Source of the DNA: an uncultured Candidatus Saccharibacteria bacterium
Lineage (GTDB): Bacteria > Patescibacteriota > Saccharimonadia > Saccharimonadales > JAGQNJ01
Length of the DNA stretch: 64,000 bases
Direction of reading: 5' to 3'
Assembly: GCA_964426845.1 (NCBI GenBank)
Contig: CAYRSA010000003.1
Coordinates: 70,751 to 134,750, forward strand
Every line of letters begins with the position of its first letter. The stretch's first letter is position 1. Shown here piece after piece: positions 6,422-23,987 of this stretch. A program made the translations under genes and the position numbers. The notes under the pieces were generated by a model. The model searched no databases, was not told where the DNA came from, and worked only from the letters and a program-made list of their open reading frames with translations.

Positions 6422-7233
6422 TTTTTGTTGTCCTTGGTGTGCTGGGACTGTGTATGGGCAGTTTTGTTAACGCTTTGGTTTGGCGCCTACACCACCAAGA
6501 GACTTCAAAAAGACAATCAAAAAAATTTTCAATCGCTCATGGTCGTTCAATGTGCCCACATTGCCAACATGAGCTAGCAGTCAAAGATTTAATACCAGTG
6601 TTGAGCTGGTTATGGCTAGGTGGGAAGTGTCGTTACTGTCGTCGGCCAATCGGCTGGCAGTATCCACTGGTTGAATTATCAACCCTAGGCTTGTATCTCA
6701 TCAGTTATGTTTACTGGCCATACGGCTTTGACGCCTTCGGCATAGCCCTGTTGGTTATATGGTTAATCTTGTTGATTGGCCTGGTAGCCTTGTTGGTCTA
6801 TGATTTGCGCTGGATGATTTTGCCCAATCGCCTGGTCTACCCGCTGTATAGCCTGGCACTTGCCCAAATTGTGGTACTCATAGTCCAAGCCGGTTCGCTT
6901 AAGCCCTTGCTTGGCGCTGCAGGCGGCATTTTGGTAACCAGCGGGGTGTTTTACGCCCTGTTTCAGATATCCAAAGGCCAGTGGATTGGTGGTGGTGACG
7001 TCAAGCTGGCAGTCATCCTAGGGGTTTTTGCGGGAGGTTTTATAGAGGGAGTTATACTAATCTTTATGGCTTCACTGCTAGGGACGATTGTCTCGTTGCC
7101 GCTATTTATTATGGGCAAGGGCCGAGGTAAGCAAATACCATTTGGGCCATTTTTGATAATTGCTACCATTATTGTCTACCTATTTGGAGCCAGTATTATA
7201 GCCGAATATAAACAGCGGTTTCTTCTCATATAA
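6418..7233 (+). CDS. pilD: Prepilin peptidase PilD (A24 family)
   Basis: 271 aa. Cys pairs CPHC...CRYC, a polytopic membrane topology and the second catalytic Asp motif GGGDVKL. 4-nt overlap with pilC. Confidence 0.88.
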   Translation: MIFVVLGVLGLCMGSFVNALVWRLHHQETSKRQSKKFSIAHGRSMCPHCQHELAVKDLIPVLSWLWLGGKCRYCRRPIGWQYPLVELSTLGLYLISYVYWPYGFDAFGIALLVIWLILLIGLVALLVYDLRWMILPNRLVYPLYSLALAQIVVLIVQAGSLKPLLGAAGGILVTSGVFYALFQISKGQWIGGGDVKLAVILGVFAGGFIEGVILIFMASLLGTIVSLPLFIMGKGRGKQIPFGPFLIIATIIVYLFGASIIAEYKQRFLLI

Positions 7234-7246
7234 AAGACAAAGCTTA

Positions 7247-7255
7247 TGCTATACT
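7247..7255 (+). promoter_or_regulatory. Extended -10 box TGcTATACT, 7 nt before ATG 7263 (leaderless-type start)
   Basis: tgctatact at 7247-7255. The same 9-mer recurs upstream of other genes in the window. Confidence 0.45.
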
Positions 7256-7262
7256 TATAGCT

Positions 7263-8111
7263 ATGAAAGAGGGCAGGTCCGGCAGGCTTACTGGCGGGTT
7301 CACGATTTTAGAGGTGATGATTTTTTTAATCATCACTGGCGTGTTGCTCGTCGCCGCCATGTCTCTATTGAGCGGTCAGCATAATAGAACGGCCTTTAGG
7401 CAATCAATCCGCGAGAACGAATCACAGTTTAAGACTACTATCAACGAGGTGGCCAGTGGTTTTTATCCCAACAACGGCAATTTTAGTTGCACAGTCAGCC
7501 CGGGCGGCATACCGACTTTTACCAGCGCTACAGCAACCGAACAAGGCCAAAACGAAGACTGTCTTTTCCTGGGCAAAGTAGTCAGGGTTAATCCTGGAGG
7601 CACGAGTTATAGTATTTATACCATCGCCGGACGCCGACTAGTCAGTGGTACAGAGGTGACGCAACTACAAGACGCTAATCCCAGGCCAGTGGCCCGGTTT
7701 AGTGGTGATCCGGTAAATACACCGGATGTAACTCAGACGGTAAATCTGCCATCCGACATCCAGATAACTAAGGTAGTCAGCATAAGTACGGCCGGCGTGC
7801 AAACAACAATTGACGCTTTTGGGTTTATGATGTCGGTCGGCAAGACCTCTGGTGGTGACTTGGTTTCCGGGGCTCAGGCTATCAGTCTGGTGCCACTGCC
7901 TAATCCAGCTCCTAACGATAATGACTTCAAAACCGGTATAAGCGGGATGCAGCAAGTTCACGTTGGCAGTGCTAAAACGATCGTCTTATGCGTAAGACAA
8001 GGTGGGACCGGCGGTGCCCAAGGAGCAATTGTATTTGGGTCGCAAGGCCGACAACTTAGTACGGAAGTAATAATAGGAGCTCCGCCCAGCGGATATACGT
8101 GCCCAGCATGA
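7263..8111 (+). CDS. Prepilin-like protein (minor pilin candidate), copy 1
   Basis: Class III signal RLTGG/FTILEVMIFLIITGVLLVAAMSLL with Gly-1, Phe+1 and Glu+5. 282 aa. Confidence 0.7.
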   Translation: MKEGRSGRLTGGFTILEVMIFLIITGVLLVAAMSLLSGQHNRTAFRQSIRENESQFKTTINEVASGFYPNNGNFSCTVSPGGIPTFTSATATEQGQNEDCLFLGKVVRVNPGGTSYSIYTIAGRRLVSGTEVTQLQDANPRPVARFSGDPVNTPDVTQTVNLPSDIQITKVVSISTAGVQTTIDAFGFMMSVGKTSGGDLVSGAQAISLVPLPNPAPNDNDFKTGISGMQQVHVGSAKTIVLCVRQGGTGGAQGAIVFGSQGRQLSTEVIIGAPPSGYTCPA

Positions 8112-8611
8112 AACAACTAGATAGAAACCACCACATCAACAATCAACGAGGCGATACCATCGTCGAAGTTCTAATATGCCTGATGATTATCGGGCTGGCT
8201 ATAGGCATTGGCTACGGCATCGCCTCGCGTAGTCTAAAAGCCGCTCGCCAAGCTCAAGAGCGCACCGAGGCAGTTAAAATCGCTGAAGGCCAAGTCGAGA
8301 GGATTAAAGGTGTGTTGGCTGGAGTTAACACGGCTGAAAAGGATAAGATTACAGACCAGTCCACCAACGTTTTTTGTATGAATAGCTCTGGCGCAGTCGT
8401 CACCTTTCCTGGTGCCTACGGCACCACCATCAAGAATTTAGACAGCGACGATCTTACCAACTATCCAGCTGACTGTACTCAAGGGCTTTACAAGGTAATT
8501 ATTGACCAGGACACGGCAACCCCTAACCAGTTTGCTGTTGTGGTGCGCTGGGAAAGCCTTGGTGCCGGCAAACGTGAGGAAGTAAAAATTAAGTACAAGG
8601 TTTATCAATAG
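8099..8611 (+). CDS. Prepilin-like protein (minor pilin candidate), copy 1
   Basis: N-terminus NQRG/DTIVEVLICLMIIGLAIGIGYG with Glu+5. 170 aa. Overlaps the previous gene by 13 nt. Confidence 0.65.
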   Translation: MPSMKQLDRNHHINNQRGDTIVEVLICLMIIGLAIGIGYGIASRSLKAARQAQERTEAVKIAEGQVERIKGVLAGVNTAEKDKITDQSTNVFCMNSSGAVVTFPGAYGTTIKNLDSDDLTNYPADCTQGLYKVIIDQDTATPNQFAVVVRWESLGAGKREEVKIKYKVYQ

Positions 8612-9241
8612 ATGAAAAAGAACCAGGCCGGTTTTACTCTAGTTGAGCTACTAATCGCTACGTCCATCTTTGCCGTAATATTATTAGCGGCTACAGCCAC
8701 CTTGATTCAGGTTGGACGCATGTACTACAAGGGTGTGATTGCTTCCAGGACCCAGGATACAGCTCGAACTCTTACCGATGACATCAGCCGAAGTTTACAA
8801 TTTAGCGGCGGTACCGTACCAACTCTAAACCTGGGTGGCAGCCCTCCCGTATCAGCAATTTGCTTTGCTGACACCCGGCTTACCTTTGTCGTGAATGTCC
8901 AGGCCCCGGAAAATATTGCCCATGCCTTGTGGCAGGATACTATCGCTGGACCGGGCAGCTGTGCGGCTAGCCCAATCAGCCTGACGGCGCCGAATCCAGG
9001 CGGGCTTGACGGCAAGGATTTGCTCGACCCGCATATGCGTCTGACTAAGCTGTCGGTGACTCCGTCGGCAGGTAGCCCAGACGTTTACGACGTAGAAGTA
9101 GGCGTGGCCTACGGTGACACCGACCTTTTCAACCTTGATGGTATGGGCAAGCCAGTTTCTTGTAAGGGCTCGGTTCTTGGCGGTCAATGGTGCGCGATAT
9201 CGGAAATTAAAACGCAAGTGTTTAGAAGGGTAGAGGATTAA
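8612..9241 (+). CDS. Prepilin-like protein (PilW-type minor pilin candidate), copy 1
   Basis: Canonical N-methylation motif KKNQAG/FTLVELLIATSIFAVILLAA. 209 aa. Confidence 0.7.
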   Translation: MKKNQAGFTLVELLIATSIFAVILLAATATLIQVGRMYYKGVIASRTQDTARTLTDDISRSLQFSGGTVPTLNLGGSPPVSAICFADTRLTFVVNVQAPENIAHALWQDTIAGPGSCAASPISLTAPNPGGLDGKDLLDPHMRLTKLSVTPSAGSPDVYDVEVGVAYGDTDLFNLDGMGKPVSCKGSVLGGQWCAISEIKTQVFRRVED

Positions 9242-9242
9242 T

Positions 9243-10484
9243 ATGAGCAAGCAATCAACCAATAAACTCAGGGCTAATCAAAGCGGTCTAGTGTCAATCC
9301 TGGTCTCTATGGTATTCATTATCATACTGACCTTGATAACCACTAGCTTTGCTTTGCTTATGCGACGTGAACAACGCCAAGCTCTGGACCGTCAACTCAG
9401 CGCCCAAGCCTTCTATGCCGCCGAGAGCGGAATCAATGATGCCATCGAGAACATTAGTGCTGGCACGGCCGTAAGTCAGGACTGCAGCAACACGACTTCT
9501 GTAATAGGCGGATCAACCGACCTTGGTGACGGTTTATCAATCAGTTGTGTGCTGATTGATAAGACCCCGAGCTCACTTGAGTATTCTGTCCCTAAAAACG
9601 AATCTAGAGTCGTACCAGTCTTGACGTCAGAACCTATAAGTAAGATTAGAATTAGCTGGCAGGCGGAAAGCGGTCAAACGGCCTTTGCCGCCACTAGTTC
9701 TACTTTCAATTTTCCCCAGGGAGCATATGGCTCTAATGTCAACGTTGGCGATGTTGGAGTACTTCGGGTTTCGGCCATGCCAATTACTAGCGATGTCAGT
9801 CGGTCCACTCTAACCAATAACACTCAGACAATGTTTTTATACCCGCAAACCGGAAGCGGCTCACCAAACACGCGTAACTATAATGCTAGCCCCGCTGCGC
9901 AGGGAGACATCATCAACGGTAAGTGTAATTCTGCCAATACCCCATACTGCTCGGCGGAGATCACCAACCTGCCGGGTACAAACAACTACTACCTTCGAGT
10001 TAAGTCAATCTACAAAGATAGCAATGTATCTATCAAGGCTTACAATGCTGGTGGGACGGAGCTGCCATTACTGGGGACCCAGGCCAAAATTGACTCTACC
10101 GGCAAAGCCAACGATGTTTTACGCCGTATACAGGTTAGGGTACCGATTAACAACCAGTTTATGTATCCAGAATTTGCGGTGGAAACCGCTGACGACATCT
10201 GTAAGTTGCTGCTAGCCATTCCTCCCGATACCGTCCAGGACGGCGAATGCTATACCGATTCCGATACCCCACCACCACCGCCACCACCAGCAGCCGTAGA
10301 CGTCTGCTCAAACATTGCCGGAATTCAGACAACTGTGCCCGCAGGCTATGTCTCTAACGGTAGTGGTGAATGTACGGTACCACCACCGCCACCACCAGTT
10401 TTACCCCCTTGTGAACCCGCACCTGCTTGGTGGTTGCCAGCCTATGGTACGTGGCCGCAATATCCAAGTCCTTGCACTCCATGA
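9243..10484 (+). CDS. PilX/GspK-like minor pilin candidate with poly-Pro C-terminus, copy 1
   Basis: Pilin-like hydrophobic N-terminus NQSG/LVSILVSMVFIIILTL without Glu+5, followed by AQAFYAAESG. The C-terminal PPPPPPP tracts flank a Cys-bracketed 23-aa loop. Confidence 0.55.
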   Translation: MSKQSTNKLRANQSGLVSILVSMVFIIILTLITTSFALLMRREQRQALDRQLSAQAFYAAESGINDAIENISAGTAVSQDCSNTTSVIGGSTDLGDGLSISCVLIDKTPSSLEYSVPKNESRVVPVLTSEPISKIRISWQAESGQTAFAATSSTFNFPQGAYGSNVNVGDVGVLRVSAMPITSDVSRSTLTNNTQTMFLYPQTGSGSPNTRNYNASPAAQGDIINGKCNSANTPYCSAEITNLPGTNNYYLRVKSIYKDSNVSIKAYNAGGTELPLLGTQAKIDSTGKANDVLRRIQVRVPINNQFMYPEFAVETADDICKLLLAIPPDTVQDGECYTDSDTPPPPPPPAAVDVCSNIAGIQTTVPAGYVSNGSGECTVPPPPPPVLPPCEPAPAWWLPAYGTWPQYPSPCTP

Positions 10485-10578
10485 TAAGGCGGGTTAGGAG
10501 ATTGAAGAATATGACTGTAGAAGATGATAACATTAAGGTATAATCAAAGCATAAGAAGTTACGGGGCTAACAAGAAAA

Positions 10579-11169
10579 ATGGTTAAGAAGTTACCAGACC
10601 TGGAAAAACATAAACACTCTCGGCTGAGTCAGGTGTTTGGTTCAAAGCGCAATCGGATGCTAGTGATCGTTGGCGTACTTGTCTTGGCTATAGTTGTAGC
10701 GGCCGCCATAATTATCAGTCAGCCTTCTCAAGACGAGCAAGACATAGCTGATATGAATGCCCTCAGTGAACAATCGGCTGCTTTGGTGGCGGACTATAAG
10801 TATGGTCAAGCTATAGCCCTGTGGCAGGCATTCTTAAAGAAACCACTCAGCCCAGACGTAAAGTGTGAGGCTAATTTGCGCTATGGCATAACCCTTTTAG
10901 ATAGCTTTAAGTACAATGATGCCTACGATAACCTCGTCGGCCTGCAGGAATCATGCAAAAATGTCGATCAGTACACTTTGACCTTAGGCTTAGCTAAGAG
11001 CGCCGATGGCGGGGCCCGAATTGTTCCAGCTATCGACAATTACAAAAAGGTCATTGACCAATTGAAACAAAGGCAAGAAAATCCACCCAAAGATTTCAAC
11101 GCTGAAGAGAATCAAAAGATGATTGCCGATTACCAAGAGACAATAAAGATTTTGGAGAGCAACTTATGA
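10579..11169 (+). CDS. Membrane-anchored helical-repeat (TPR-like) protein, copy 1
   Basis: 196 aa with an N-terminal TM anchor and then alpha-helical repeats (YKYGQAIALWQAFLKK). A TATAAT box lies at 10539-10544. 4-nt overlap with the next gene. Confidence 0.5.
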   Translation: MVKKLPDLEKHKHSRLSQVFGSKRNRMLVIVGVLVLAIVVAAAIIISQPSQDEQDIADMNALSEQSAALVADYKYGQAIALWQAFLKKPLSPDVKCEANLRYGITLLDSFKYNDAYDNLVGLQESCKNVDQYTLTLGLAKSADGGARIVPAIDNYKKVIDQLKQRQENPPKDFNAEENQKMIADYQETIKILESNL

Positions 11170-13496
11170 TCGCCCGAAAGCTAAAACGCCTAGTTCTGCT
11201 TGCTGCGGTGAGTTTATTATTTTTGACAGGTGTGGCTGGCTCGCTGCTGTTCCAGGCTAGCAAGGCTTTTGCCCAGGCGCCAGGCCTTAGGTTCCAGGTA
11301 CTGAAGAACGGTTCTTGTACTACTTCGGTAAATTCCGGAGACTTTGTAAATGTCAAAATATTTCGTGACGCCACCAGCGGTACTATAAGTAGCCTACAAG
11401 TTAAAGTTAATGGTGCCAATGTGACTACAAATCCCAGCTCAATTACCGGTTCGGCTAGCAACTTAGAAATTGCTGCGCCGACGCTGTCACAAAACCCCAG
11501 CACTATAACCGTCACCGGTTGGAATAACAACCAAAGCCAATCTGTAACATTTACCGCCTATTGCCAAGCTTCTGGTGTCAATTATGGCACTAACGGCTGG
11601 GGAGTGACAGTTAACACCAATACCAGTGGCGGCAGTAGCGGAACCGTCAATACAACTGCCTGCACGCCAACAGCCTGGTTTCAGCAGGGTAATTCTAGCT
11701 CGGCCAGCAGAATGTCCTATCTAGACTTGTCCCAGTCGAGTGCGACAGTTGTGAATAGCGGAGCCGCCTATACAGCCCAATTAAACGGCTCTGGTTATAA
11801 TAAGACCGACCAATACTTCTATGGCTTTACGCCTAGTTCTGGTTACGGTACGCCCGGTACTTTGTACCAATTCGATAGTCAAGGTGGCTCTAGAAGTCTG
11901 GGAATAGTCCTGCCTTCAGCAACCTACGGTGATGGTTGGTTTGCCGGTGATGTTCGAGGAGCTGGCATTCCTGGCCAAGATAACTACCTGTACGTAGTTC
12001 AATTAAACAGCAACAAGATCTACAAGATTAATCTGGGAACTGTAAGCGGCGCAGCCACCAACAGAATAGCTGCAACCGTTACTACTAGCAGAACTACCAG
12101 GCTTAACGATGTCGCCTTTAGTCCCCAGGACGGCAAGCTTTACGGATTTGATCAGAACCAAGGGGTTTTTGTAAGAGTTGACCCAAGTAGCGGCACAGTA
12201 ACTAATATTAGCCAGCCCTATACAGCCAATCCTCACGGTGTAGCCTGGTTCTACCAAACTAGCAGTGGCACCGCTTTTTACTCCTATGACAACACAGGAC
12301 AAATATACAGGTTTCTAGGTATCGAAAACTACGGTCCTGGCAATCTTTTGCCAGTCCAGCCACCTTGGAAATCGGCTACCTCAACCCAACAAAACGATGG
12401 TTCAGTCTGTGCCACTACTGGAGACCCGTTCTGTACGGCTCCTGATGGCTCCACCTGGCCCATTGGCCACGCCAATTGTAATCCTCCACCACCGGACGTT
12501 TGCCCTAACATAGCCGGCAGCCAGACGGCTGTGCCAACTGGCTACGTCAAGAACTCCGCTGGAGACTGTGTCATACCAGCTACGCCTTATCTAAGAGCCT
12601 ACGGCAACGATTTGGCGGTGGGTAGTGCTTTTGGGGCTAGTTGTGACGTTCGTGATAATGATGCTACATTCCGAGCTCGCGCTAGGTCAGTAACTAGTAA
12701 TACTTGGTCTGGGGCCTCCGGCCAATTTGCGCTCTTGGCTTTGGGCCAAATTGACGGCTTCTATAGCTCGAACCTGCGCAATCCGCCCACAGGTCCTCCT
12801 AATCCGCGAGTCGGTTTAACTTTCGGTAACTTCAACGGCTCGGCCCAGGTTACTGACTACGGGGGCTCAGGTGCTCAAAGCCGCTGTTTACCAGATTTCA
12901 TGAACAAGGCTTTTGCTGGTCAGTTAGAGACGGGCAATCGTACAATCAACACCACATCAGTCCCCGAATGCACAACTGCTACAGCAGCAACCTGTAGACA
13001 GGCTAGATTCATCCGCGGCGACGTCTATATCAATGGCAATATCACCTTTGATAACGCGGGTGGCTGGTCATCACCGAATAAGATCCCTAGTTACTACTTG
13101 GTCGTGGAGGGAAATATCTACATAGCTCCGGGAGTTACTCAATTAGACGGCGTGTTCATAGCCCAACCTAAGTTCACCGGTGGGGTAATGGACGCCAACA
13201 CCGGACAGATCCGCACCTGCGCCAGCTCGACGGGTGGAAACTTCACAACCATAAGCGCCTGTAACAATACATTGACAGTTAATGGAGCATTTATTGCTCA
13301 CCGCGTACTTTTCCAGCGCACAAAAGGTGACTCTAACGCCGCCAGCGCCACTGAAGGAGTCAATGATACTGGCAATGTGGCTGAGGTATTCAAGTTTAGC
13401 CCCGAGACTTATCTGGCGACACCGCCAGCAAATTTCCAAACCGGTCAGTCTCTCAAGAAGTACGATTTCATCACCAGTCTGCCGCCAGTCCTGTAA
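11166..13496 (+). CDS. Large secreted protein, putative pilus-tip adhesin (PilY1-position), copy 1
   Basis: 776 aa with a signal peptide ending AFAQA. It has a beta-rich Thr/Ser/Gly composition and propeller-like repeats (DVAFSPQDGKLYGFDQNQGVFVRVDPSSG). The functional call rests on its position after the minor pilins only. Confidence 0.5.
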   Translation: MIARKLKRLVLLAAVSLLFLTGVAGSLLFQASKAFAQAPGLRFQVLKNGSCTTSVNSGDFVNVKIFRDATSGTISSLQVKVNGANVTTNPSSITGSASNLEIAAPTLSQNPSTITVTGWNNNQSQSVTFTAYCQASGVNYGTNGWGVTVNTNTSGGSSGTVNTTACTPTAWFQQGNSSSASRMSYLDLSQSSATVVNSGAAYTAQLNGSGYNKTDQYFYGFTPSSGYGTPGTLYQFDSQGGSRSLGIVLPSATYGDGWFAGDVRGAGIPGQDNYLYVVQLNSNKIYKINLGTVSGAATNRIAATVTTSRTTRLNDVAFSPQDGKLYGFDQNQGVFVRVDPSSGTVTNISQPYTANPHGVAWFYQTSSGTAFYSYDNTGQIYRFLGIENYGPGNLLPVQPPWKSATSTQQNDGSVCATTGDPFCTAPDGSTWPIGHANCNPPPPDVCPNIAGSQTAVPTGYVKNSAGDCVIPATPYLRAYGNDLAVGSAFGASCDVRDNDATFRARARSVTSNTWSGASGQFALLALGQIDGFYSSNLRNPPTGPPNPRVGLTFGNFNGSAQVTDYGGSGAQSRCLPDFMNKAFAGQLETGNRTINTTSVPECTTATAATCRQARFIRGDVYINGNITFDNAGGWSSPNKIPSYYLVVEGNIYIAPGVTQLDGVFIAQPKFTGGVMDANTGQIRTCASSTGGNFTTISACNNTLTVNGAFIAHRVLFQRTKGDSNAASATEGVNDTGNVAEVFKFSPETYLATPPANFQTGQSLKKYDFITSLPPVL

Positions 13497-13613
13497 GTAT
13501 TTTTCCACAACGGGGTAAACGGACCTTAAAAGAGCCTTGCAATTCAAAGTGTTTATGGTTACCATACAAGTATCAATCTATAAACGGGCATCGAATAAAG
13601 GGGTAAAATAACA

Positions 13614-14093
13614 ATGAAAAAACTACAAAAAGAGCAAAAAGGCTTCACAATCATCGAAGTTATGATCGTCTTGGTCATCGCTGCGGTGATCATCCTGATC
13701 GTTTTCTTGGCGGTTCCAGCCTTGCAACGTAACGCTCGAAACAACCAACGTAAGAGCGACGCCGCTCGTATTAGCGCAGCTGTTAGTGAGTATACCAACA
13801 ATACTAACGGTAGCCTGCCAACTACTTGGGGTAACATCAAGCCTTACCTAGGTAACATGGCTTTCTATACCACCCTGCCAGCAGACGGTGACGCAATTGG
13901 TAACGCGACAGCCAACCAAACAGTTGCTACCGCTGACACCGCTCCAGCTGTGGCCAAAAGGGCAACCTGCAACACTACGGCCGGCGACGTTAACATCGGT
14001 AAAGCCGTAACCAGTACTCAAGATAGACAATTTGTCGTTCTCTACAAAACTGAAGGTGGATCAACCGAACCTTCTCAGTGTATTGCTGGCTAA
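13614..14093 (+). CDS. pilA: Major type IV pilin, copy 1
   Basis: KEQKG/FTIIEVMIVLVIAAVIILIVFLAV with Glu+5. 159 aa with a C-terminal Cys pair. It has its own upstream spacer and RBS and is followed by a strong terminator. Confidence 0.8.
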   Translation: MKKLQKEQKGFTIIEVMIVLVIAAVIILIVFLAVPALQRNARNNQRKSDAARISAAVSEYTNNTNGSLPTTWGNIKPYLGNMAFYTTLPADGDAIGNATANQTVATADTAPAVAKRATCNTTAGDVNIGKAVTSTQDRQFVVLYKTEGGSTEPSQCIAG

Positions 14094-14112
14094 TAGCTAA
14101 CAACTAGTACTT

Positions 14113-14136
14113 AAACAGCCCTTCGGGGCTGTTTTT
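14113..14136. terminator. Bidirectional intrinsic terminator between pilA and xer, copy 1
   Basis: aaacagccc-ttcg-gggctgttttt: a 9-bp stem and UUCG loop, with an A-tract on one side and a T-tract on the other. Confidence 0.7.
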
Positions 14137-14144
14137 GATTGGCT

Positions 14145-15432: not shown

Positions 15433-15461
15433 AAAACAAAGCTTATGCTATACTTATAGCT

Positions 15462-16310
15462 ATGAAAGAGGGCAGGTCCGGCAGGCTTACTGGCGGGTTC
15501 ACGATTTTAGAGGTGATGATTTTTTTAATCATCACTGGCGTGTTGCTCGTCGCCGCCATGTCTCTATTGAGCGGTCAGCATAATAGAACGGCCTTTAGGC
15601 AATCAATCCGCGAGAACGAATCACAGTTTAAGACTACTATCAACGAGGTGGCCAGTGGTTTTTATCCCAACAACGGCAATTTTAGTTGCACAGTCAGCCC
15701 GGGCGGCATACCGACTTTTACCAGCGCTACAGCAACCGAACAAGGCCAAAACGAAGACTGTCTTTTCCTGGGCAAAGTAGTCAGGGTTAATCCTGGAGGC
15801 ACGAGTTATAGTATTTATACCATCGCCGGACGCCGACTAGTCAGTGGTACAGAGGTGACGCAACTACAAGACGCTAATCCCAGGCCAGTGGCCCGGTTTA
15901 GTGGTGATCCGGTAAATACACCGGATGTAACTCAGACGGTAAATCTGCCATCCGACATCCAGATAACTAAGGTAGTCAGCATAAGTACGGCCGGCGTGCA
16001 AACAACAATTGACGCTTTTGGGTTTATGATGTCGGTCGGCAAGACCTCTGGTGGTGACTTGGTTTCCGGGGCTCAGGCTATCAGTCTGGTGCCACTGCCT
16101 AATCCAGCTCCTAACGATAATGACTTCAAAACCGGTATAAGCGGGATGCAGCAAGTTCACGTTGGCAGTGCTAAAACGATCGTCTTATGCGTAAGACAAG
16201 GTGGGACCGGCGGTGCCCAAGGAGCAATTGTATTTGGGTCGCAAGGCCGACAACTTAGTACGGAAGTAATAATAGGAGCTCCGCCCAGCGGATATACGTG
16301 CCCAGCATGA
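15462..16310 (+). CDS. Prepilin-like protein (minor pilin candidate), copy 2
   Basis: Translation identical to 7263-8111 (offset +8199). Confidence 0.7.
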   Translation: MKEGRSGRLTGGFTILEVMIFLIITGVLLVAAMSLLSGQHNRTAFRQSIRENESQFKTTINEVASGFYPNNGNFSCTVSPGGIPTFTSATATEQGQNEDCLFLGKVVRVNPGGTSYSIYTIAGRRLVSGTEVTQLQDANPRPVARFSGDPVNTPDVTQTVNLPSDIQITKVVSISTAGVQTTIDAFGFMMSVGKTSGGDLVSGAQAISLVPLPNPAPNDNDFKTGISGMQQVHVGSAKTIVLCVRQGGTGGAQGAIVFGSQGRQLSTEVIIGAPPSGYTCPA

Positions 16311-16810
16311 AACAACTAGATAGAAACCACCACATCAACAATCAACGAGGCGATACCATCGTCGAAGTTCTAATATGCCTGATGATTATCGGGCTGGCTA
16401 TAGGCATTGGCTACGGCATCGCCTCGCGTAGTCTAAAAGCCGCTCGCCAAGCTCAAGAGCGCACCGAGGCAGTTAAAATCGCTGAAGGCCAAGTCGAGAG
16501 GATTAAAGGTGTGTTGGCTGGAGTTAACACGGCTGAAAAGGATAAGATTACAGACCAGTCCACCAACGTTTTTTGTATGAATAGCTCTGGCGCAGTCGTC
16601 ACCTTTCCTGGTGCCTACGGCACCACCATCAAGAATTTAGACAGCGACGATCTTACCAACTATCCAGCTGACTGTACTCAAGGGCTTTACAAGGTAATTA
16701 TTGACCAGGACACGGCAACCCCTAACCAGTTTGCTGTTGTGGTGCGCTGGGAAAGCCTTGGTGCCGGCAAACGTGAGGAAGTAAAAATTAAGTACAAGGT
16801 TTATCAATAG
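16298..16810 (+). CDS. Prepilin-like protein (minor pilin candidate), copy 2
   Basis: Translation identical to 8099-8611 (offset +8199). Confidence 0.65.
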   Translation: MPSMKQLDRNHHINNQRGDTIVEVLICLMIIGLAIGIGYGIASRSLKAARQAQERTEAVKIAEGQVERIKGVLAGVNTAEKDKITDQSTNVFCMNSSGAVVTFPGAYGTTIKNLDSDDLTNYPADCTQGLYKVIIDQDTATPNQFAVVVRWESLGAGKREEVKIKYKVYQ

Positions 16811-17440
16811 ATGAAAAAGAACCAGGCCGGTTTTACTCTAGTTGAGCTACTAATCGCTACGTCCATCTTTGCCGTAATATTATTAGCGGCTACAGCCACC
16901 TTGATTCAGGTTGGACGCATGTACTACAAGGGTGTGATTGCTTCCAGGACCCAGGATACAGCTCGAACTCTTACCGATGACATCAGCCGAAGTTTACAAT
17001 TTAGCGGCGGTACCGTACCAACTCTAAACCTGGGTGGCAGCCCTCCCGTATCAGCAATTTGCTTTGCTGACACCCGGCTTACCTTTGTCGTGAATGTCCA
17101 GGCCCCGGAAAATATTGCCCATGCCTTGTGGCAGGATACTATCGCTGGACCGGGCAGCTGTGCGGCTAGCCCAATCAGCCTGACGGCGCCGAATCCAGGC
17201 GGGCTTGACGGCAAGGATTTGCTCGACCCGCATATGCGTCTGACTAAGCTGTCGGTGACTCCGTCGGCAGGTAGCCCAGACGTTTACGACGTAGAAGTAG
17301 GCGTGGCCTACGGTGACACCGACCTTTTCAACCTTGATGGTATGGGCAAGCCAGTTTCTTGTAAGGGCTCGGTTCTTGGCGGTCAATGGTGCGCGATATC
17401 GGAAATTAAAACGCAAGTGTTTAGAAGGGTAGAGGATTAA
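16811..17440 (+). CDS. Prepilin-like protein (PilW-type candidate), copy 2
   Basis: Translation identical to 8612-9241 (offset +8199). Confidence 0.7.
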   Translation: MKKNQAGFTLVELLIATSIFAVILLAATATLIQVGRMYYKGVIASRTQDTARTLTDDISRSLQFSGGTVPTLNLGGSPPVSAICFADTRLTFVVNVQAPENIAHALWQDTIAGPGSCAASPISLTAPNPGGLDGKDLLDPHMRLTKLSVTPSAGSPDVYDVEVGVAYGDTDLFNLDGMGKPVSCKGSVLGGQWCAISEIKTQVFRRVED

Positions 17441-17441
17441 T

Positions 17442-18683
17442 ATGAGCAAGCAATCAACCAATAAACTCAGGGCTAATCAAAGCGGTCTAGTGTCAATCCT
17501 GGTCTCTATGGTATTCATTATCATACTGACCTTGATAACCACTAGCTTTGCTTTGCTTATGCGACGTGAACAACGCCAAGCTCTGGACCGTCAACTCAGC
17601 GCCCAAGCCTTCTATGCCGCCGAGAGCGGAATCAATGATGCCATCGAGAACATTAGTGCTGGCACGGCCGTAAGTCAGGACTGCAGCAACACGACTTCTG
17701 TAATAGGCGGATCAACCGACCTTGGTGACGGTTTATCAATCAGTTGTGTGCTGATTGATAAGACCCCGAGCTCACTTGAGTATTCTGTCCCTAAAAACGA
17801 ATCTAGAGTCGTACCAGTCTTGACGTCAGAACCTATAAGTAAGATTAGAATTAGCTGGCAGGCGGAAAGCGGTCAAACGGCCTTTGCCGCCACTAGTTCT
17901 ACTTTCAATTTTCCCCAGGGAGCATATGGCTCTAATGTCAACGTTGGCGATGTTGGAGTACTTCGGGTTTCGGCCATGCCAATTACTAGCGATGTCAGTC
18001 GGTCCACTCTAACCAATAACACTCAGACAATGTTTTTATACCCGCAAACCGGAAGCGGCTCACCAAACACGCGTAACTATAATGCTAGCCCCGCTGCGCA
18101 GGGAGACATCATCAACGGTAAGTGTAATTCTGCCAATACCCCATACTGCTCGGCGGAGATCACCAACCTGCCGGGTACAAACAACTACTACCTTCGAGTT
18201 AAGTCAATCTACAAAGATAGCAATGTATCTATCAAGGCTTACAATGCTGGTGGGACGGAGCTGCCATTACTGGGGACCCAGGCCAAAATTGACTCTACCG
18301 GCAAAGCCAACGATGTTTTACGCCGTATACAGGTTAGGGTACCGATTAACAACCAGTTTATGTATCCAGAATTTGCGGTGGAAACCGCTGACGACATCTG
18401 TAAGTTGCTGCTAGCCATTCCTCCCGATACCGTCCAGGACGGCGAATGCTATACCGATTCCGATACCCCACCACCACCGCCACCACCAGCAGCCGTAGAC
18501 GTCTGCTCAAACATTGCCGGAATTCAGACAACTGTGCCCGCAGGCTATGTCTCTAACGGTAGTGGTGAATGTACGGTACCACCACCGCCACCACCAGTTT
18601 TACCCCCTTGTGAACCCGCACCTGCTTGGTGGTTGCCAGCCTATGGTACGTGGCCGCAATATCCAAGTCCTTGCACTCCATGA
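17442..18683 (+). CDS. PilX/GspK-like minor pilin candidate, copy 2
   Basis: Translation identical to 9243-10484 (offset +8199). Confidence 0.55.
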   Translation: MSKQSTNKLRANQSGLVSILVSMVFIIILTLITTSFALLMRREQRQALDRQLSAQAFYAAESGINDAIENISAGTAVSQDCSNTTSVIGGSTDLGDGLSISCVLIDKTPSSLEYSVPKNESRVVPVLTSEPISKIRISWQAESGQTAFAATSSTFNFPQGAYGSNVNVGDVGVLRVSAMPITSDVSRSTLTNNTQTMFLYPQTGSGSPNTRNYNASPAAQGDIINGKCNSANTPYCSAEITNLPGTNNYYLRVKSIYKDSNVSIKAYNAGGTELPLLGTQAKIDSTGKANDVLRRIQVRVPINNQFMYPEFAVETADDICKLLLAIPPDTVQDGECYTDSDTPPPPPPPAAVDVCSNIAGIQTTVPAGYVSNGSGECTVPPPPPPVLPPCEPAPAWWLPAYGTWPQYPSPCTP

Positions 18684-18777
18684 TAAGGCGGGTTAGGAGA
18701 TTGAAGAATATGACTGTAGAAGATGATAACATTAAGGTATAATCAAAGCATAAGAAGTTACGGGGCTAACAAGAAAA

Positions 18778-19368
18778 ATGGTTAAGAAGTTACCAGACCT
18801 GGAAAAACATAAACACTCTCGGCTGAGTCAGGTGTTTGGTTCAAAGCGCAATCGGATGCTAGTGATCGTTGGCGTACTTGTCTTGGCTATAGTTGTAGCG
18901 GCCGCCATAATTATCAGTCAGCCTTCTCAAGACGAGCAAGACATAGCTGATATGAATGCCCTCAGTGAACAATCGGCTGCTTTGGTGGCGGACTATAAGT
19001 ATGGTCAAGCTATAGCCCTGTGGCAGGCATTCTTAAAGAAACCACTCAGCCCAGACGTAAAGTGTGAGGCTAATTTGCGCTATGGCATAACCCTTTTAGA
19101 TAGCTTTAAGTACAATGATGCCTACGATAACCTCGTCGGCCTGCAGGAATCATGCAAAAATGTCGATCAGTACACTTTGACCTTAGGCTTAGCTAAGAGC
19201 GCCGATGGCGGGGCCCGAATTGTTCCAGCTATCGACAATTACAAAAAGGTCATTGACCAATTGAAACAAAGGCAAGAAAATCCACCCAAAGATTTCAACG
19301 CTGAAGAGAATCAAAAGATGATTGCCGATTACCAAGAGACAATAAAGATTTTGGAGAGCAACTTATGA
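18778..19368 (+). CDS. Membrane-anchored helical-repeat protein, copy 2
   Basis: Translation identical to 10579-11169 (offset +8199). Confidence 0.5.
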   Translation: MVKKLPDLEKHKHSRLSQVFGSKRNRMLVIVGVLVLAIVVAAAIIISQPSQDEQDIADMNALSEQSAALVADYKYGQAIALWQAFLKKPLSPDVKCEANLRYGITLLDSFKYNDAYDNLVGLQESCKNVDQYTLTLGLAKSADGGARIVPAIDNYKKVIDQLKQRQENPPKDFNAEENQKMIADYQETIKILESNL

Positions 19369-21695
19369 TCGCCCGAAAGCTAAAACGCCTAGTTCTGCTT
19401 GCTGCGGTGAGTTTATTATTTTTGACAGGTGTGGCTGGCTCGCTGCTGTTCCAGGCTAGCAAGGCTTTTGCCCAGGCGCCAGGCCTTAGGTTCCAGGTAC
19501 TGAAGAACGGTTCTTGTACTACTTCGGTAAATTCCGGAGACTTTGTAAATGTCAAAATATTTCGTGACGCCACCAGCGGTACTATAAGTAGCCTACAAGT
19601 TAAAGTTAATGGTGCCAATGTGACTACAAATCCCAGCTCAATTACCGGTTCGGCTAGCAACTTAGAAATTGCTGCGCCGACGCTGTCACAAAACCCCAGC
19701 ACTATAACCGTCACCGGTTGGAATAACAACCAAAGCCAATCTGTAACATTTACCGCCTATTGCCAAGCTTCTGGTGTCAATTATGGCACTAACGGCTGGG
19801 GAGTGACAGTTAACACCAATACCAGTGGCGGCAGTAGCGGAACCGTCAATACAACTGCCTGCACGCCAACAGCCTGGTTTCAGCAGGGTAATTCTAGCTC
19901 GGCCAGCAGAATGTCCTATCTAGACTTGTCCCAGTCGAGTGCGACAGTTGTGAATAGCGGAGCCGCCTATACAGCCCAATTAAACGGCTCTGGTTATAAT
20001 AAGACCGACCAATACTTCTATGGCTTTACGCCTAGTTCTGGTTACGGTACGCCCGGTACTTTGTACCAATTCGATAGTCAAGGTGGCTCTAGAAGTCTGG
20101 GAATAGTCCTGCCTTCAGCAACCTACGGTGATGGTTGGTTTGCCGGTGATGTTCGAGGAGCTGGCATTCCTGGCCAAGATAACTACCTGTACGTAGTTCA
20201 ATTAAACAGCAACAAGATCTACAAGATTAATCTGGGAACTGTAAGCGGCGCAGCCACCAACAGAATAGCTGCAACCGTTACTACTAGCAGAACTACCAGG
20301 CTTAACGATGTCGCCTTTAGTCCCCAGGACGGCAAGCTTTACGGATTTGATCAGAACCAAGGGGTTTTTGTAAGAGTTGACCCAAGTAGCGGCACAGTAA
20401 CTAATATTAGCCAGCCCTATACAGCCAATCCTCACGGTGTAGCCTGGTTCTACCAAACTAGCAGTGGCACCGCTTTTTACTCCTATGACAACACAGGACA
20501 AATATACAGGTTTCTAGGTATCGAAAACTACGGTCCTGGCAATCTTTTGCCAGTCCAGCCACCTTGGAAATCGGCTACCTCAACCCAACAAAACGATGGT
20601 TCAGTCTGTGCCACTACTGGAGACCCGTTCTGTACGGCTCCTGATGGCTCCACCTGGCCCATTGGCCACGCCAATTGTAATCCTCCACCACCGGACGTTT
20701 GCCCTAACATAGCCGGCAGCCAGACGGCTGTGCCAACTGGCTACGTCAAGAACTCCGCTGGAGACTGTGTCATACCAGCTACGCCTTATCTAAGAGCCTA
20801 CGGCAACGATTTGGCGGTGGGTAGTGCTTTTGGGGCTAGTTGTGACGTTCGTGATAATGATGCTACATTCCGAGCTCGCGCTAGGTCAGTAACTAGTAAT
20901 ACTTGGTCTGGGGCCTCCGGCCAATTTGCGCTCTTGGCTTTGGGCCAAATTGACGGCTTCTATAGCTCGAACCTGCGCAATCCGCCCACAGGTCCTCCTA
21001 ATCCGCGAGTCGGTTTAACTTTCGGTAACTTCAACGGCTCGGCCCAGGTTACTGACTACGGGGGCTCAGGTGCTCAAAGCCGCTGTTTACCAGATTTCAT
21101 GAACAAGGCTTTTGCTGGTCAGTTAGAGACGGGCAATCGTACAATCAACACCACATCAGTCCCCGAATGCACAACTGCTACAGCAGCAACCTGTAGACAG
21201 GCTAGATTCATCCGCGGCGACGTCTATATCAATGGCAATATCACCTTTGATAACGCGGGTGGCTGGTCATCACCGAATAAGATCCCTAGTTACTACTTGG
21301 TCGTGGAGGGAAATATCTACATAGCTCCGGGAGTTACTCAATTAGACGGCGTGTTCATAGCCCAACCTAAGTTCACCGGTGGGGTAATGGACGCCAACAC
21401 CGGACAGATCCGCACCTGCGCCAGCTCGACGGGTGGAAACTTCACAACCATAAGCGCCTGTAACAATACATTGACAGTTAATGGAGCATTTATTGCTCAC
21501 CGCGTACTTTTCCAGCGCACAAAAGGTGACTCTAACGCCGCCAGCGCCACTGAAGGAGTCAATGATACTGGCAATGTGGCTGAGGTATTCAAGTTTAGCC
21601 CCGAGACTTATCTGGCGACACCGCCAGCAAATTTCCAAACCGGTCAGTCTCTCAAGAAGTACGATTTCATCACCAGTCTGCCGCCAGTCCTGTAA
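19365..21695 (+). CDS. Large secreted putative tip adhesin, copy 2
   Basis: Translation identical to 11166-13496 (offset +8199). Confidence 0.5.
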   Translation: MIARKLKRLVLLAAVSLLFLTGVAGSLLFQASKAFAQAPGLRFQVLKNGSCTTSVNSGDFVNVKIFRDATSGTISSLQVKVNGANVTTNPSSITGSASNLEIAAPTLSQNPSTITVTGWNNNQSQSVTFTAYCQASGVNYGTNGWGVTVNTNTSGGSSGTVNTTACTPTAWFQQGNSSSASRMSYLDLSQSSATVVNSGAAYTAQLNGSGYNKTDQYFYGFTPSSGYGTPGTLYQFDSQGGSRSLGIVLPSATYGDGWFAGDVRGAGIPGQDNYLYVVQLNSNKIYKINLGTVSGAATNRIAATVTTSRTTRLNDVAFSPQDGKLYGFDQNQGVFVRVDPSSGTVTNISQPYTANPHGVAWFYQTSSGTAFYSYDNTGQIYRFLGIENYGPGNLLPVQPPWKSATSTQQNDGSVCATTGDPFCTAPDGSTWPIGHANCNPPPPDVCPNIAGSQTAVPTGYVKNSAGDCVIPATPYLRAYGNDLAVGSAFGASCDVRDNDATFRARARSVTSNTWSGASGQFALLALGQIDGFYSSNLRNPPTGPPNPRVGLTFGNFNGSAQVTDYGGSGAQSRCLPDFMNKAFAGQLETGNRTINTTSVPECTTATAATCRQARFIRGDVYINGNITFDNAGGWSSPNKIPSYYLVVEGNIYIAPGVTQLDGVFIAQPKFTGGVMDANTGQIRTCASSTGGNFTTISACNNTLTVNGAFIAHRVLFQRTKGDSNAASATEGVNDTGNVAEVFKFSPETYLATPPANFQTGQSLKKYDFITSLPPVL

Positions 21696-21812
21696 GTATT
21701 TTTCCACAACGGGGTAAACGGACCTTAAAAGAGCCTTGCAATTCAAAGTGTTTATGGTTACCATACAAGTATCAATCTATAAACGGGCATCGAATAAAGG
21801 GGTAAAATAACA

Positions 21813-22292
21813 ATGAAAAAACTACAAAAAGAGCAAAAAGGCTTCACAATCATCGAAGTTATGATCGTCTTGGTCATCGCTGCGGTGATCATCCTGATCG
21901 TTTTCTTGGCGGTTCCAGCCTTGCAACGTAACGCTCGAAACAACCAACGTAAGAGCGACGCCGCTCGTATTAGCGCAGCTGTTAGTGAGTATACCAACAA
22001 TACTAACGGTAGCCTGCCAACTACTTGGGGTAACATCAAGCCTTACCTAGGTAACATGGCTTTCTATACCACCCTGCCAGCAGACGGTGACGCAATTGGT
22101 AACGCGACAGCCAACCAAACAGTTGCTACCGCTGACACCGCTCCAGCTGTGGCCAAAAGGGCAACCTGCAACACTACGGCCGGCGACGTTAACATCGGTA
22201 AAGCCGTAACCAGTACTCAAGATAGACAATTTGTCGTTCTCTACAAAACTGAAGGTGGATCAACCGAACCTTCTCAGTGTATTGCTGGCTAA
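21813..22292 (+). CDS. pilA: Major type IV pilin, copy 2
   Basis: Translation identical to 13614-14093 (offset +8199). Confidence 0.8.
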   Translation: MKKLQKEQKGFTIIEVMIVLVIAAVIILIVFLAVPALQRNARNNQRKSDAARISAAVSEYTNNTNGSLPTTWGNIKPYLGNMAFYTTLPADGDAIGNATANQTVATADTAPAVAKRATCNTTAGDVNIGKAVTSTQDRQFVVLYKTEGGSTEPSQCIAG

Positions 22293-22311
22293 TAGCTAAC
22301 AACTAGTACTT

Positions 22312-22335
22312 AAACAGCCCTTCGGGGCTGTTTTT
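22312..22335. terminator. Bidirectional intrinsic terminator, copy 2
   Basis: Same hairpin as 14113-14136. Confidence 0.7.
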
Positions 22336-22343
22336 GATTGGCT

Positions 22344-23258
22344 TTATTCAGCTTTGCGGTGATATTGGTCGTGAACTTTTTTGAGGTGGGGGTCAGTGAC
22401 ATGAGTGTATATCTGGGTAGTAGCCACGTTGCTGTGGCCCAGCATGGCCTGGACGGACCGCAGATCGGCTCCATTCATAAGCAAGTCAGTGGCGAAAGAG
22501 TGGCGCAGGGTGTGCGGGGAGACGTGTTTGGTGATGCCGGCTAGCTTGGCGTAGCGGGCCACCATCCGCTGGATGCTGCGGGCAGTTAGGCGTTTATAGT
22601 TGCCGCTATTATCAGCAGTTGAGCGGCCACCATAGCTAATAAACAGGGGTGGCAGACTATCCTCACGTCGGTTTAAATAGCCCTGAACCCAATCAGCCGC
22701 GGTAGGGCTTATGAAAATCGGCCGGTCCTTCTGGCCCTTGCCTCGGACCATGAACTCCCGGCGTTGCATGTTTACATGGTCGCGGTTGAGATTGACCAGT
22801 TCCGAGACCCGCAAGCCACTGGAGAATAGCAATTCCAAGATGGCTCGGTCGCGCAGTCCGCTGATTTCTTGGATCTTGGGTTGGGCGAACAGGCGTTCTA
22901 GCTCTTCAGGGTTAAGGAAGGTTACTTGCTTTCGTCGAGTGCGGGCTAGTTCAATTTTGTCAGCTGACAGGGCAGGGATGCTCCGCCGAGCACAGAATTT
23001 CAGAAATGAACGGAGGGCAATTAGATGATAGTTTTGGGTAGTTTTGTCCAACTCATCAGAGGTGTTGGTGCCCAGGCGGTTCAGCCACAGGCGCCATTTT
23101 TGGATAAGTTCAGGAGTGATATCCGAAACGTTGATATCGCCGGCATAGTCTTCTAGACGGGTGAGGTAGTGGTCGTAGTTATGAATGGTTTTTCCGGAGC
23201 GGTTTTGCTCGATCTCTAAGTATTCTAGAAAATCGGTCTTGGCTTTGGAAAAACGCAT
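22344..23258 (-). CDS. Xer-type site-specific tyrosine recombinase, copy 2
   Basis: Identical protein from ATG 23258. The listed ORF start at 23327 is an upstream extension. Confidence 0.85.
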   Translation of the reverse strand: MRFSKAKTDFLEYLEIEQNRSGKTIHNYDHYLTRLEDYAGDINVSDITPELIQKWRLWLNRLGTNTSDELDKTTQNYHLIALRSFLKFCARRSIPALSADKIELARTRRKQVTFLNPEELERLFAQPKIQEISGLRDRAILELLFSSGLRVSELVNLNRDHVNMQRREFMVRGKGQKDRPIFISPTAADWVQGYLNRREDSLPPLFISYGGRSTADNSGNYKRLTARSIQRMVARYAKLAGITKHVSPHTLRHSFATDLLMNGADLRSVQAMLGHSNVATTQIYTHVTDPHLKKVHDQYHRKAE

Positions 23259-23360
23259 ACTCTTATTGTAATACACTAATGCTTCCAACTGGCATTCTAA
23301 TCTGTTATACTGCCCACAAGAATACAAAATGTATACAATAATCAGTAAAAGGAGACAGCC

Positions 23361-23873
23361 TTGGAACGAACTCTCATAATTTTAAAACCGGATGCCGTTA
23401 AGCGCGGTATAGTCGGCGAAATCATCAGCCGCTTTGAAAAAGCCGGCCTGAAAATTGTTGGAGCCAAGATGTTACAACCGGATTATGATCATTATCACAC
23501 GCATTACGAGGGTATCAGTAAGATGATTTCTCGCCGAGGGCAGGAGGCTTTCGATGTTACCCTGGAAATGATGCAAGAAGGGCCTGTTATTGCGTTTGTT
23601 CTAGAAGGTGTTAATGCCGCAAGTTTGGTGCGAAAGATGGTAGGTGACACCGAGCCCGAGAAGGCTCTGCCAGGTACGGTTCGTGGCGATTACGCCCACA
23701 TGGGCTTTGCTCACTCCAATAAAGAGAGGATTGGTGTGCCAAATCTGATTCACGCCTCCGGTGATGCTGACGAGGCCAAGGTGGAGATTGCTCATTGGTT
23801 TTCGGAAGCTGAGCTATTTGAATACGAAGCTGTTCACGAAGTTTACACTCAAGCCAGAAGTCGCAAGAAATAA
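23361..23873 (+). CDS. ndk: Nucleoside diphosphate kinase
   Basis: TTG start with AAAGGAG 7 nt upstream. MERTLIILKPDAVKRG and the active-site His motif NLIHASGD are present. 170 aa. Confidence 0.9.
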   Translation: MERTLIILKPDAVKRGIVGEIISRFEKAGLKIVGAKMLQPDYDHYHTHYEGISKMISRRGQEAFDVTLEMMQEGPVIAFVLEGVNAASLVRKMVGDTEPEKALPGTVRGDYAHMGFAHSNKERIGVPNLIHASGDADEAKVEIAHWFSEAELFEYEAVHEVYTQARSRKK

Positions 23874-23876
23874 AGC

Positions 23877-23961: not shown

Positions 23962-23987
23962 AACCGTATCTTACAAGATGACCAACG

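Follow-up and report, generated by a model that had tools for sequence, protein, structure and literature searches.

Tandem duplication of a chromosomal segment is a well known type of event, and among the closest described systems is the patAB duplication of Streptococcus pneumoniae M184, which is 9.2 kb long, shares 2 bases at its joint, was shown experimentally to allow read-through into the second copy, and was passed on by transformation in experiments (PMC4432121). In Acinetobacter, 36 of 104 duplication junctions were without identity (PMC4432121). The subject here is a repeat in a stretch of 64,000 nucleotides (the window, taken at its full length) from an uncultured Candidatus Saccharibacteria bacterium (assembly GCA_964426845.1, contig CAYRSA010000003.1, positions 70,751 to 134,750), where an 8,199-bp block with the genes for minor pilins, a 776-aa propeller protein, a candidate major pilin and a Xer recombinase occurs twice, head to tail. 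The case is of interest for the genes that it concerns, those of the organelle by which an episymbiont makes contact with its host, and for a hint of recurrence, which is given by a different joint of the same module in other samples.

Two further bodies of work bear on such a locus. Host binding by Nanosynbacter lyticus TM7x requires its major pilin and PilX2, a protein with a propeller (PMC11623550); tandem copies are not reported for TM7x in that paper, in which the string "duplicat" does not occur. False duplications and concatenated subpopulation variants have been documented in all long-read metagenome assemblers (10.1101/2025.04.22.649783), and the window comes from a metagenome-assembled genome (MAG). 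It is proposed here, with a probability of about 0.55, that the joint between the two copies (J1) reflects a duplication really present in at least some members of the population sampled.

The repeat and its single joint

The features of the duplicated block and its boundaries are as follows.

6418-7233, plus strand: pilD, prepilin peptidase, 271 aa, intact (Pfam A24_N_bact 1.5e-28, Peptidase_A24 3.3e-12)
6984-15182, plus strand: duplication unit, copy 1, 8,199 bp (offset comparison, 17 mismatches to copy 2)
7263-10484, plus strand: four prepilin-like (minor pilin) genes of copy 1, at 7263-8111, 8099/8108-8611, 8612-9241 and 9243-10484 (N_methyl, PilV, GspH-like and PilX_N matches, and the N-termini)
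10579-11169, plus strand: open reading frame (ORF) of 196 aa with one N-terminal hydrophobic helix and no family match (copy 2 at 18778-19368)
11166-13496, plus strand: 776-aa non-pilin protein, candidate tip adhesin (Pfam DUF6923 5.8e-20; copy 2 at 19365-21695)
13614-14093, plus strand: 159-aa major pilin candidate (N_methyl 3.5e-8, ComGC/GspG-like matches; copy 2 at 21813-22292)
14145-15059, minus strand: xer of copy 1, 304 aa from the ATG at 15059 (XerC/XerD NCBIfam 5.8e-75)
15091-15182, plus strand: copy-1 tail beside J1, made up of the xer-ndk intergenic region and the first 21 nt of ndk
15162-15197, plus strand: joint J1, where the ndk TTG and 6 codons (15162-15182) abut the third base of pilD codon 189 (15183)
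15183-23381, plus strand: duplication unit, copy 2, 8,199 bp (offset comparison)
15183-15432, plus strand: pilD 3' fragment, the last 250 nt with the stop, divergent "c2" allele (inside a 100-aa ORF at 15130-15432)
15462-18683, plus strand: four prepilin-like genes of copy 2
22344-23258, minus strand: xer of copy 2, 304 aa (P0133), in its native place beside ndk
23361-23873, plus strand: ndk, intact (Pfam NDK 3.4e-39)

A base-by-base comparison at an offset of 8,199 and a repeat search both gave two head-to-tail copies, 6984-15182 and 15183-23381, that are 99.8% identical. All 17 mismatches between them lie close to the joint (at most 253 nt to its right and at most 92 nt to its left), with 13 in 7032-7236 and the other four at 15091, 15118, 15147 and 15179, and the 7,854 bp of 7237-15090 are free of any difference. 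The window holds no N. The ends of the repeat are sharp: bases 6983 and 15182 do not match, nor do 15183 and 23382, and hence the periodic match spans exactly one period. The left breakpoint falls after base 6983, at the third base of pilD codon 189 of 271, and the right one after base 23381, which is 21 nt into ndk (TTG start at 23361; codon 7), so that a single novel joint, between 15182 and 15183, separates the copies and one intact copy of each boundary gene is kept (pilD at 6418-7233, ndk at 23361-23873). This anatomy is that of an illegitimate segmental tandem duplication.

J1 reads ATTATT/GATTGG and has 0 nt of microhomology with either parental site. Read across the joint, the ndk start and its 6 codons give LERTLIIDWWW followed by a stop, which is out of frame with pilD, and only an ATG at 15130 has the C-terminal 83 codons of pilD in its frame. 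The xer ORF of copy 1, which lies on the minus strand, is open through J1 up to an ATG at 15368. A recorded 407-aa Xer product (P0146, from the same 139-kb NCBI contig) matches this ORF through J1 (14145-15368, minus strand), and its first ~100 residues are the antisense translation of the pilD fragment and the intergenic region; it is a spurious gene model made by J1.

An earlier, sequence-only reading of this DNA had described the 8,199-bp head-to-tail repeat at 6984-23381, its breakpoints in pilD codon 189 and 21 nt into ndk, the identity of the copies over 7237-15090, and the gene content, and the comparisons above reproduce all four, the identity base by base; to these are to be added the 17 differing bases at the copy ends, which tell more about the repeat than any other feature, and the 196-aa ORF, which that account did not list. 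The ndk/pilD fusion that it described holds as a physical juxtaposition but not as an in-frame reading.

On the reading favored here, a RecA-independent (illegitimate) tandem duplication from pilD codon 189 to ndk codon 7 would have taken place in a sewage Saccharibacteria population and would have doubled the whole minor-pilin, 776-aa propeller protein and major-pilin operon and, incidentally, the housekeeping xer. If this is true, no gene was inactivated and eight genes were doubled with identical coding sequence, and the immediate effect would be one of dosage, on which selection might then act.

Alleles beside the joint and the locus in other assemblies

The pilD fragment of copy 2 (15183-15432) differs from 6984-7233 by 10 synonymous and 2 non-synonymous changes, with 1 more change just past the stop (7236/15435). 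The divergence is strongly biased toward synonymous sites (pS = 0.156, pN = 0.011, pN/pS 0.07), two or fewer non-synonymous changes among 12 having a binomial P of 5.5e-5 under neutrality, and the two replacements are conservative (M to I and F to V) and are both found in native full-length PilD alleles (P0004, P0007). An outgroup contig, L037 (94% identical), agrees with copy 2 at 11 of these 13 positions, and copy-2 states also occur inside the intact pilD of other strains, at the first 5 sites in L001 and the first 10 in L005. On the other side of J1, the copy-1 tail carries C, T, C, T, the native xer-ndk allele of L003, L004, L028 and L029, which is 4 sites apart from the window's own native tail (T, C, T, A at 23290-23381). 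A synonymous divergence of ~16% therefore abuts 7.85 kb without any difference, and the sequence on either side of J1 consists of ordinary functional population alleles that are unlike those of the outer flanks. In-situ decay of the pilD fragment was considered as the source of the differences and is ruled out by the synonymous bias and the native occurrence of both amino-acid variants. This joint-proximal allele pattern is a simple diagnostic that can be used on other MAG duplications.

An identical 776-aa protein is found on 21 contigs, and proteins of the window recur in many sewage and wastewater assemblies. The 304-aa Xer allele P0133 is recorded only from the source contig. The four longest contigs, L001 to L004, are single-copy and run through pilD, the module, xer, ndk and the downstream genes, and the outer flanks of the repeat are collinear with this single-copy locus. 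A scan of genome contigs in the GTDB species set gave as nearest matches Saccharibacteria/Saccharimonadales MAGs whose PilD is 62% and 53% identical, the source species not being among them, and the Xer homologues that carry source names are likewise from Saccharibacteria.

Several of these observations weigh against a genuine duplication at J1. The two copies, which would have been the same right up to the join point at formation, show 17 joint-proximal, allele-like differences. The synonymous bias, the native variants and the outgroup states indicate that the pilD divergence did not arise in situ in a dead fragment, and a duplication that formed here and then drifted cannot yield this allele pattern; later recombination, transfer of the join point or a strain-mosaic contig is required by the differences. 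Strain alleles beside a joint also resemble what is seen in false duplications due to strain heterogeneity (10.1101/2025.04.22.649783). Among 30-odd fetched contigs of the species J1 is found in none, and it was met in the source MAG only (the 139-kb NCBI contig). L032, L035 and L036 are 100% identical to the window over 5169-11551, unbroken through 6984 and the variable sites at 7032-7236, and L003, L006 and L007 are one base off the window up to 14846 and likewise uninterrupted there, with L003 also continuing from xer into ndk. A fixed J1 would branch the k = 31 Logan graphs within the 48 bases shared at 6984-7031, and the same strain is therefore single-copy in those samples. Exact look-ups of the 100-aa and 407-aa joint ORFs gave no match elsewhere, the J1 38-mer was not present in the JGI metagenome or IMG/VR contigs, and two protein searches with joint-spanning peptides returned nothing that crosses J1. 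These negative results are weak because the organism seems to be absent from the JGI set anyway, the representatives of 90% clusters hide their members (P0146 is itself hidden within the Xer 90% cluster), and in a short-read graph a contig over the joint would be too small for a gene to be called on it. As in a false duplication, then, the structure is absent from independent assemblies of the same strain and the copies differ by alleles that are seen natively; absence of J1 elsewhere is also compatible with a recent, strain-specific real event. Coverage in ERZ3455834, at 6.55 for the module contig vs 3.31 for the adjoining xer-5'/ndk contig, is a hint in favor of two copies but could equally reflect two strains sharing the module.

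The population to which these contigs belong is strongly recombining. Strains share long 100%-identical tracts that are broken by imported tracts of 80-97% identity, and pilD (6100-7236) and the xer 5' half with ndk are two such imports. In comparisons with L001, L002, L025, L003 and L030 the variable tracts are at 6100-7236, 14847-15182, 24200-26700, 29700 and 32700. The pilD alleles of L001, L005 and L002 are mosaics with differing end points, the switches being at 6956, 7105 or 7176 depending on the contig, and among strains that are 5-10% apart in the 5' halves of pilD and xer the pilin module (7237-14846) hardly varies. Such recombination makes later allele replacement or transfer of a join point plausible, and the long identical tracts of the population make the identical middle of the two copies uninformative. 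The end of L005 at 23382 was examined as a possible J1 branch and rejected, because it lies one base past the breakpoint and has the native T, at a site where the population has a T/C single-nucleotide polymorphism. An untrimmed overlap of a circularized genome was also rejected, since the source contig is 139 kb long and belongs to a fragmented MAG rather than a closed genome.

A second joint and the competing explanations

A different joint of the same module, J2, was found in three contigs (L010, L039 and L040), each from a different sewage assembly, and is not in the window. Its parts are given below in the coordinates of the window.

7095-7106, plus strand: left partner of the J2 microhomology, GTTGCCGCTATT (also at 15294-15305, with single-nucleotide polymorphisms in copy 2)
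14400-14411, plus strand: right partner of the J2 microhomology, GTTGCCGCTATT, inside xer (also at 22599-22610)
J2 junction sequence: GGCGTTTATAGTTGCCGCTATTTATTATGGGCAAGG

L010, a SPAdes contig of 7,360 bp from ERZ3455832, is not collinear with the window: its bases 1-206 correspond to 14206-14411, in xer, and its bases 195-7360 to 7095-14260, the overlap being the 12-mer GTTGCCGCTATT. Its ends repeat 55 nt, which closes it into a cycle of 7,305 bp. The chimeric 109-aa ORF over J2 (P0143) led to the two further contigs. L039 (ERZ28575448), likewise assembled by SPAdes and 7,360 bp long, closes into the same cycle of 7,305 bp, with 3 bases different from L010. L040 (ERZ3455881) is a linear contig of 661 bp in which the 3' end of the major pilin is followed by the xer 3' fragment, J2, the pilD 3' fragment and then sequence of the first minor pilin. 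The mismatches in the last 95 nt of L040 were not used as a sign of a different haplotype, as they stand at a contig end with a coverage of 1.56 and may be read errors. J2 has the topology of J1, with downstream sequence joined to the pilD 3' end, and its 7,305-bp unit holds all of the pilin genes, the 776-aa gene and the major pilin, together with a truncated xer. No other 12-mer occurs both in the 1.26 kb before the module and in the 2.2 kb after it; a joint at the sole available 12-mer fits microhomology-mediated illegitimate recombination and is very unlikely to be a random chimera. J2 is thus a real head-to-tail rearrangement of the pilus module in this species, by amplification or circularization, found in a search that covered contigs carrying module proteins, which favored its discovery. 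An assembly-graph cycle does not distinguish a circle from a tandem array, and the linear L040 is uninformative on the same point, but the lack of any replication gene in the unit favors an array. J2 suggests that such module amplifications occur in nature; it gives indirect support to amplification of the pilus module in this episymbiont and raises the prior for J1.

Against this background the origin of J1 can be considered. It may be that the locus is single-copy in every genome of the sample and that two strain versions of a conserved block with strain-variable flanks (pilD, xer-5'/ndk) were concatenated or looped during assembly, in which case the joint would lack read support or stem from a chimeric read. 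This is a serious possibility, although one held at clearly less than even odds. Such an artefact would account for the position of all 17 differences within 253 nt and 92 nt of the joint, where matching or closely similar alleles segregate among strains, and it agrees with the restriction of J1 to the source contig, the single-copy state of same-strain contigs elsewhere, the blunt and arbitrary breakpoints and the record of false duplications in long-read metagenome assemblers (10.1101/2025.04.22.649783). The caution voiced in the sequence-only reading, that the repeat might be an assembly artefact, was accordingly well founded and still stands, given a joint seen in the source only, same-strain contigs that are unbroken and strain alleles on the joint side. 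However, a blunt joint cannot come from shared k-mers, and there are no scaffolder Ns; with no k-mer common to both sides of J1, a de Bruijn artefact is excluded and the joint must come either from reads or from concatenation by the assembler. Moreover, past the first 253 nt copy 2 has the alleles of the window strain, both in xer, where it carries the rare X1 (14847-15065), and at 11705, a position at which L003, L006 and L007 have another base; the putative second haplotype would therefore have to be a near-identical clone-mate. The existence in other samples of J2, a real and different joint of the same module, also speaks against an artefact, and the frequency of blunt joints among proven duplications favors a real duplication, whether in a mosaic contig or in one genome. 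A further explanation, considered improbable, is an extrachromosomal circle (8,199 bp for J1 and 7,305 bp for J2) that popped out or was illegitimately circularized and was then threaded into the chromosome by the assembler. The closed 7,305-bp cycles of L010 and L039, both 7,360-bp contigs with 55-nt identical ends, are what such a circle would give, but neither unit encodes a replication function, the J2 unit truncates xer, and a circle that does not replicate would not be expected in three samples at a level high enough to be assembled.

The recombinase gene at the end of each unit raises the separate question of whether the block is a mobile pilus island inserted twice in tandem through site-specific integration by its own tyrosine recombinase. 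This is rejected as very improbable. Apart from that gene, the features of an island are missing: no attachment (att) core is shared by the left end, the joint and the right end, where the identity is exactly one unit, so that an att-core direct repeat is lacking; the breakpoints cut the coding sequence of pilD and ndk; GC content is flat, the unit being the same as its flanks; and J2 cuts through xer itself. Nor does the recombinase belong to an element. In distant Saccharibacteria (L011, L012) the Xer is 78-80% identical and has the same position beside ndk, the order pilC-(pilin)-pilD-four minor pilins-xer(-)-ndk-bPH-ppiC being kept in these two distant relatives, and a query with the Xer N-terminal part has 5,801 homologues, the best at 83-98% identity. 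Xer is a conserved housekeeping recombinase and a passenger in the duplicated interval. Hence the view taken in the sequence-only reading, of a segmental duplication rather than an island, is supported by the intragenic breakpoints, the absence of a repeated core or microhomology, the native composition, the single-copy state of L001 to L004, which are independent assemblies of the species, and the conserved synteny, whereas its listing of a Xer-type recombinase as a component of the module is not upheld.

If J1 is a genuine duplication, as preferred here, the joint-bearing DNA and the outer flanks would have had different histories, to judge from their allele differences. Either the contig would be a strain mosaic, in which a duplication-bearing strain was joined via the shared module to the flanks of a co-occurring strain, or the join point would have been imported by recombination or natural transformation, or else the outer flanks would later have been replaced by imports. 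A broader proposal, which is doubtful at present, is that the pilin/adhesin operon is a recurrent target of amplification in nature, with at least two independent join points (J1 and J2) that take in just the host-contact module and spread between strains by recombination or transformation, and that an unstable tandem duplication tunes host attachment. Spread of join points between strains would explain why J1 lies amid foreign alleles. If true, it would amount to dosage tuning in a genome-reduced episymbiont with few regulators, and could be a first step to paralogous pilus sets.

The pilus module, its surroundings and known systems

The products of the four prepilin-like genes of the block have prepilin-type N-termini or PilV/PilX-like matches, the 159-aa protein is typical of small major pilins, and PilD adjoins the pilin genes, as in a type IV pilus operon. 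Matches to N_methyl or IV_pilin_GFxxxE are given by the 209-aa and 159-aa proteins and, more weakly, by the 282-aa and 170-aa proteins, and the 413-aa protein matches PilX_N. The 776-aa protein has a signal anchor, no prepilin motif and a beta-propeller region at ~210-400 (DUF6923), which is its sole match in a Pfam scan, with none to the PilY1 family; no sequence relative was found in the PDB. Its C-terminal ~300 residues (~470-776) are common to more than 1,700 proteins (E of 1e-10 or less) that have total lengths of 600-1,200 aa and highly variable N-terminal parts. An AlphaFold (AF2) model built on 75 sequences has a mean pLDDT of 65.6, with 85-95 in the C-terminal domain, and its propeller at ~210-400 matches generic YVTN/WD40/NHL propellers with TM-scores to the target of 0.26-0.44. 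Several Cys, Gly and Pro residues of the C-terminal domain are invariant, and there is a ...SLPPxL motif at its terminus; the domain belongs to no Pfam family, is without a relative in the PDB and may be a module for pilus docking. For the protein as a whole, putative tip adhesin is a reasonable label.

Gene order within the module is not the same throughout the order. In distant Saccharimonadales (compared at L011 2649-2873 and L012 9427-9654) the major pilin lies between pilC and pilD and the fourth minor pilin adjoins xer, and in L012 a homologue of the 776-aa C-terminal domain is found elsewhere in the locus. In the lineage of the window, the 196-aa ORF, the 776-aa protein and the major pilin (10579-14093) are situated between the minor pilins and xer.

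In the arrangement created by J1, the copy-2 pilin operon would sit not behind pilBTCD but behind the xer-ndk intergenic region, with the ndk promoter and ribosome-binding site, the first 21 nt of ndk and then 250 nt of pilD lying in between. Promoter and terminator scans, which perform at chance level, predict nothing terminator-like on the plus strand of this whole stretch. Read-through from the ndk promoter into the copy-2 pilin operon is plausible, a suggestion drawn from the retained intergenic region and the lack of a predicted terminator. If J1 is real, it represents a gene amplification, in a natural population, that acts on the organelle by which an obligate episymbiont finds its host and stays attached to it. 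The second copy would be rewired behind a housekeeping promoter, and the case would offer a handle on how host attachment is adjusted in ultrasmall bacteria with very few regulators. Should it be an artefact, it serves as a clear warning, in which a conserved block between strain-variable genes leaves a public MAG with a false eight-gene "gain", including the 407-aa Xer P0146.

Outside the block the window contains one RNase P RNA and several tRNA genes.

24019-24095, minus strand: tRNA-Arg-CCT
39325-39402, minus strand: tRNA-Asp
39984-40059, minus strand: tRNA-Thr-CGT
43913-43990, minus strand: tRNA-Val-GAC
51295-51370, minus strand: tRNA-Pro-GGG
52357-52701: RNase P RNA, class A, 237.7 bits

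A 142-nt stretch at 23876-24018, between ndk and tRNA-Arg(CCT), is polymorphic for presence and absence (it is missing in L019) and has at its borders a direct repeat, 18-20 nt long, of the 3' end of the tRNA. A copy of 79% similarity at 39176-39331 stands beside tRNA-Asp(GTC) and is bounded by the tRNA-Asp 3' end. Both copies open with a hairpin, GTTACC-TTCG-GGTAAC in one and GTTGAC-TTCG-GTCAAC in the other, and the two changes between them are compensatory. The element has no Rfam match and looks like a miniature element or an att scar that targets tRNA 3' ends. A direct repeat of 249 nt (33525-33773 and 34164-34412, 82% identity, spacing 639) lies within a very large ORF, downstream of the pilus locus, that exceeds 1,700 aa in L025.

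As an operon, the block is comparable to the fimU-pilVWXY1E locus of Pseudomonas and the type IV pilus loci of TM7x (PMC11623550), in which several prepilin-like genes are followed by a large propeller-bearing non-pilin protein, near pilD and pilBTC. The 776-aa protein is similar to TM7x PilX2 in position and architecture, but has no PilY1-family match in the Pfam scan and matches only DUF6923 and generic propellers. With tyrosine-recombinase islands and tandem integrated elements the repeat has in common a tyrosine recombinase at one end of the repeated unit, and it differs from them in having no att core, breakpoints in coding sequence, a syntenic Xer and native composition.

The repeat also resembles the patAB duplication (PMC4432121). 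Both have a head-to-tail unit of a few kb with a single join point (0 nt in J1, 2 nt in patAB) and no gene lost, both put foreign sequence in front of the second copy (from a tRNA gene in patAB and from the region of the ndk promoter here), and duplications of this kind are transferable by transformation. They differ in that the evidence here is sequence, capture of a promoter is a proposal, and the alleles on the joint side differ from the outer flanks, unlike those of a fresh in-situ duplication. The locus also comes near to the false duplications of metagenome assemblies (10.1101/2025.04.22.649783), with which it shares a long direct repeat within a contig, conserved sequence between strain-variable flanks, copies that differ only by strain alleles and a structure that is unseen in other assemblies. 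What distinguishes it from them is J2, a second joint of this module that is biologically credible and is found in other assemblies.

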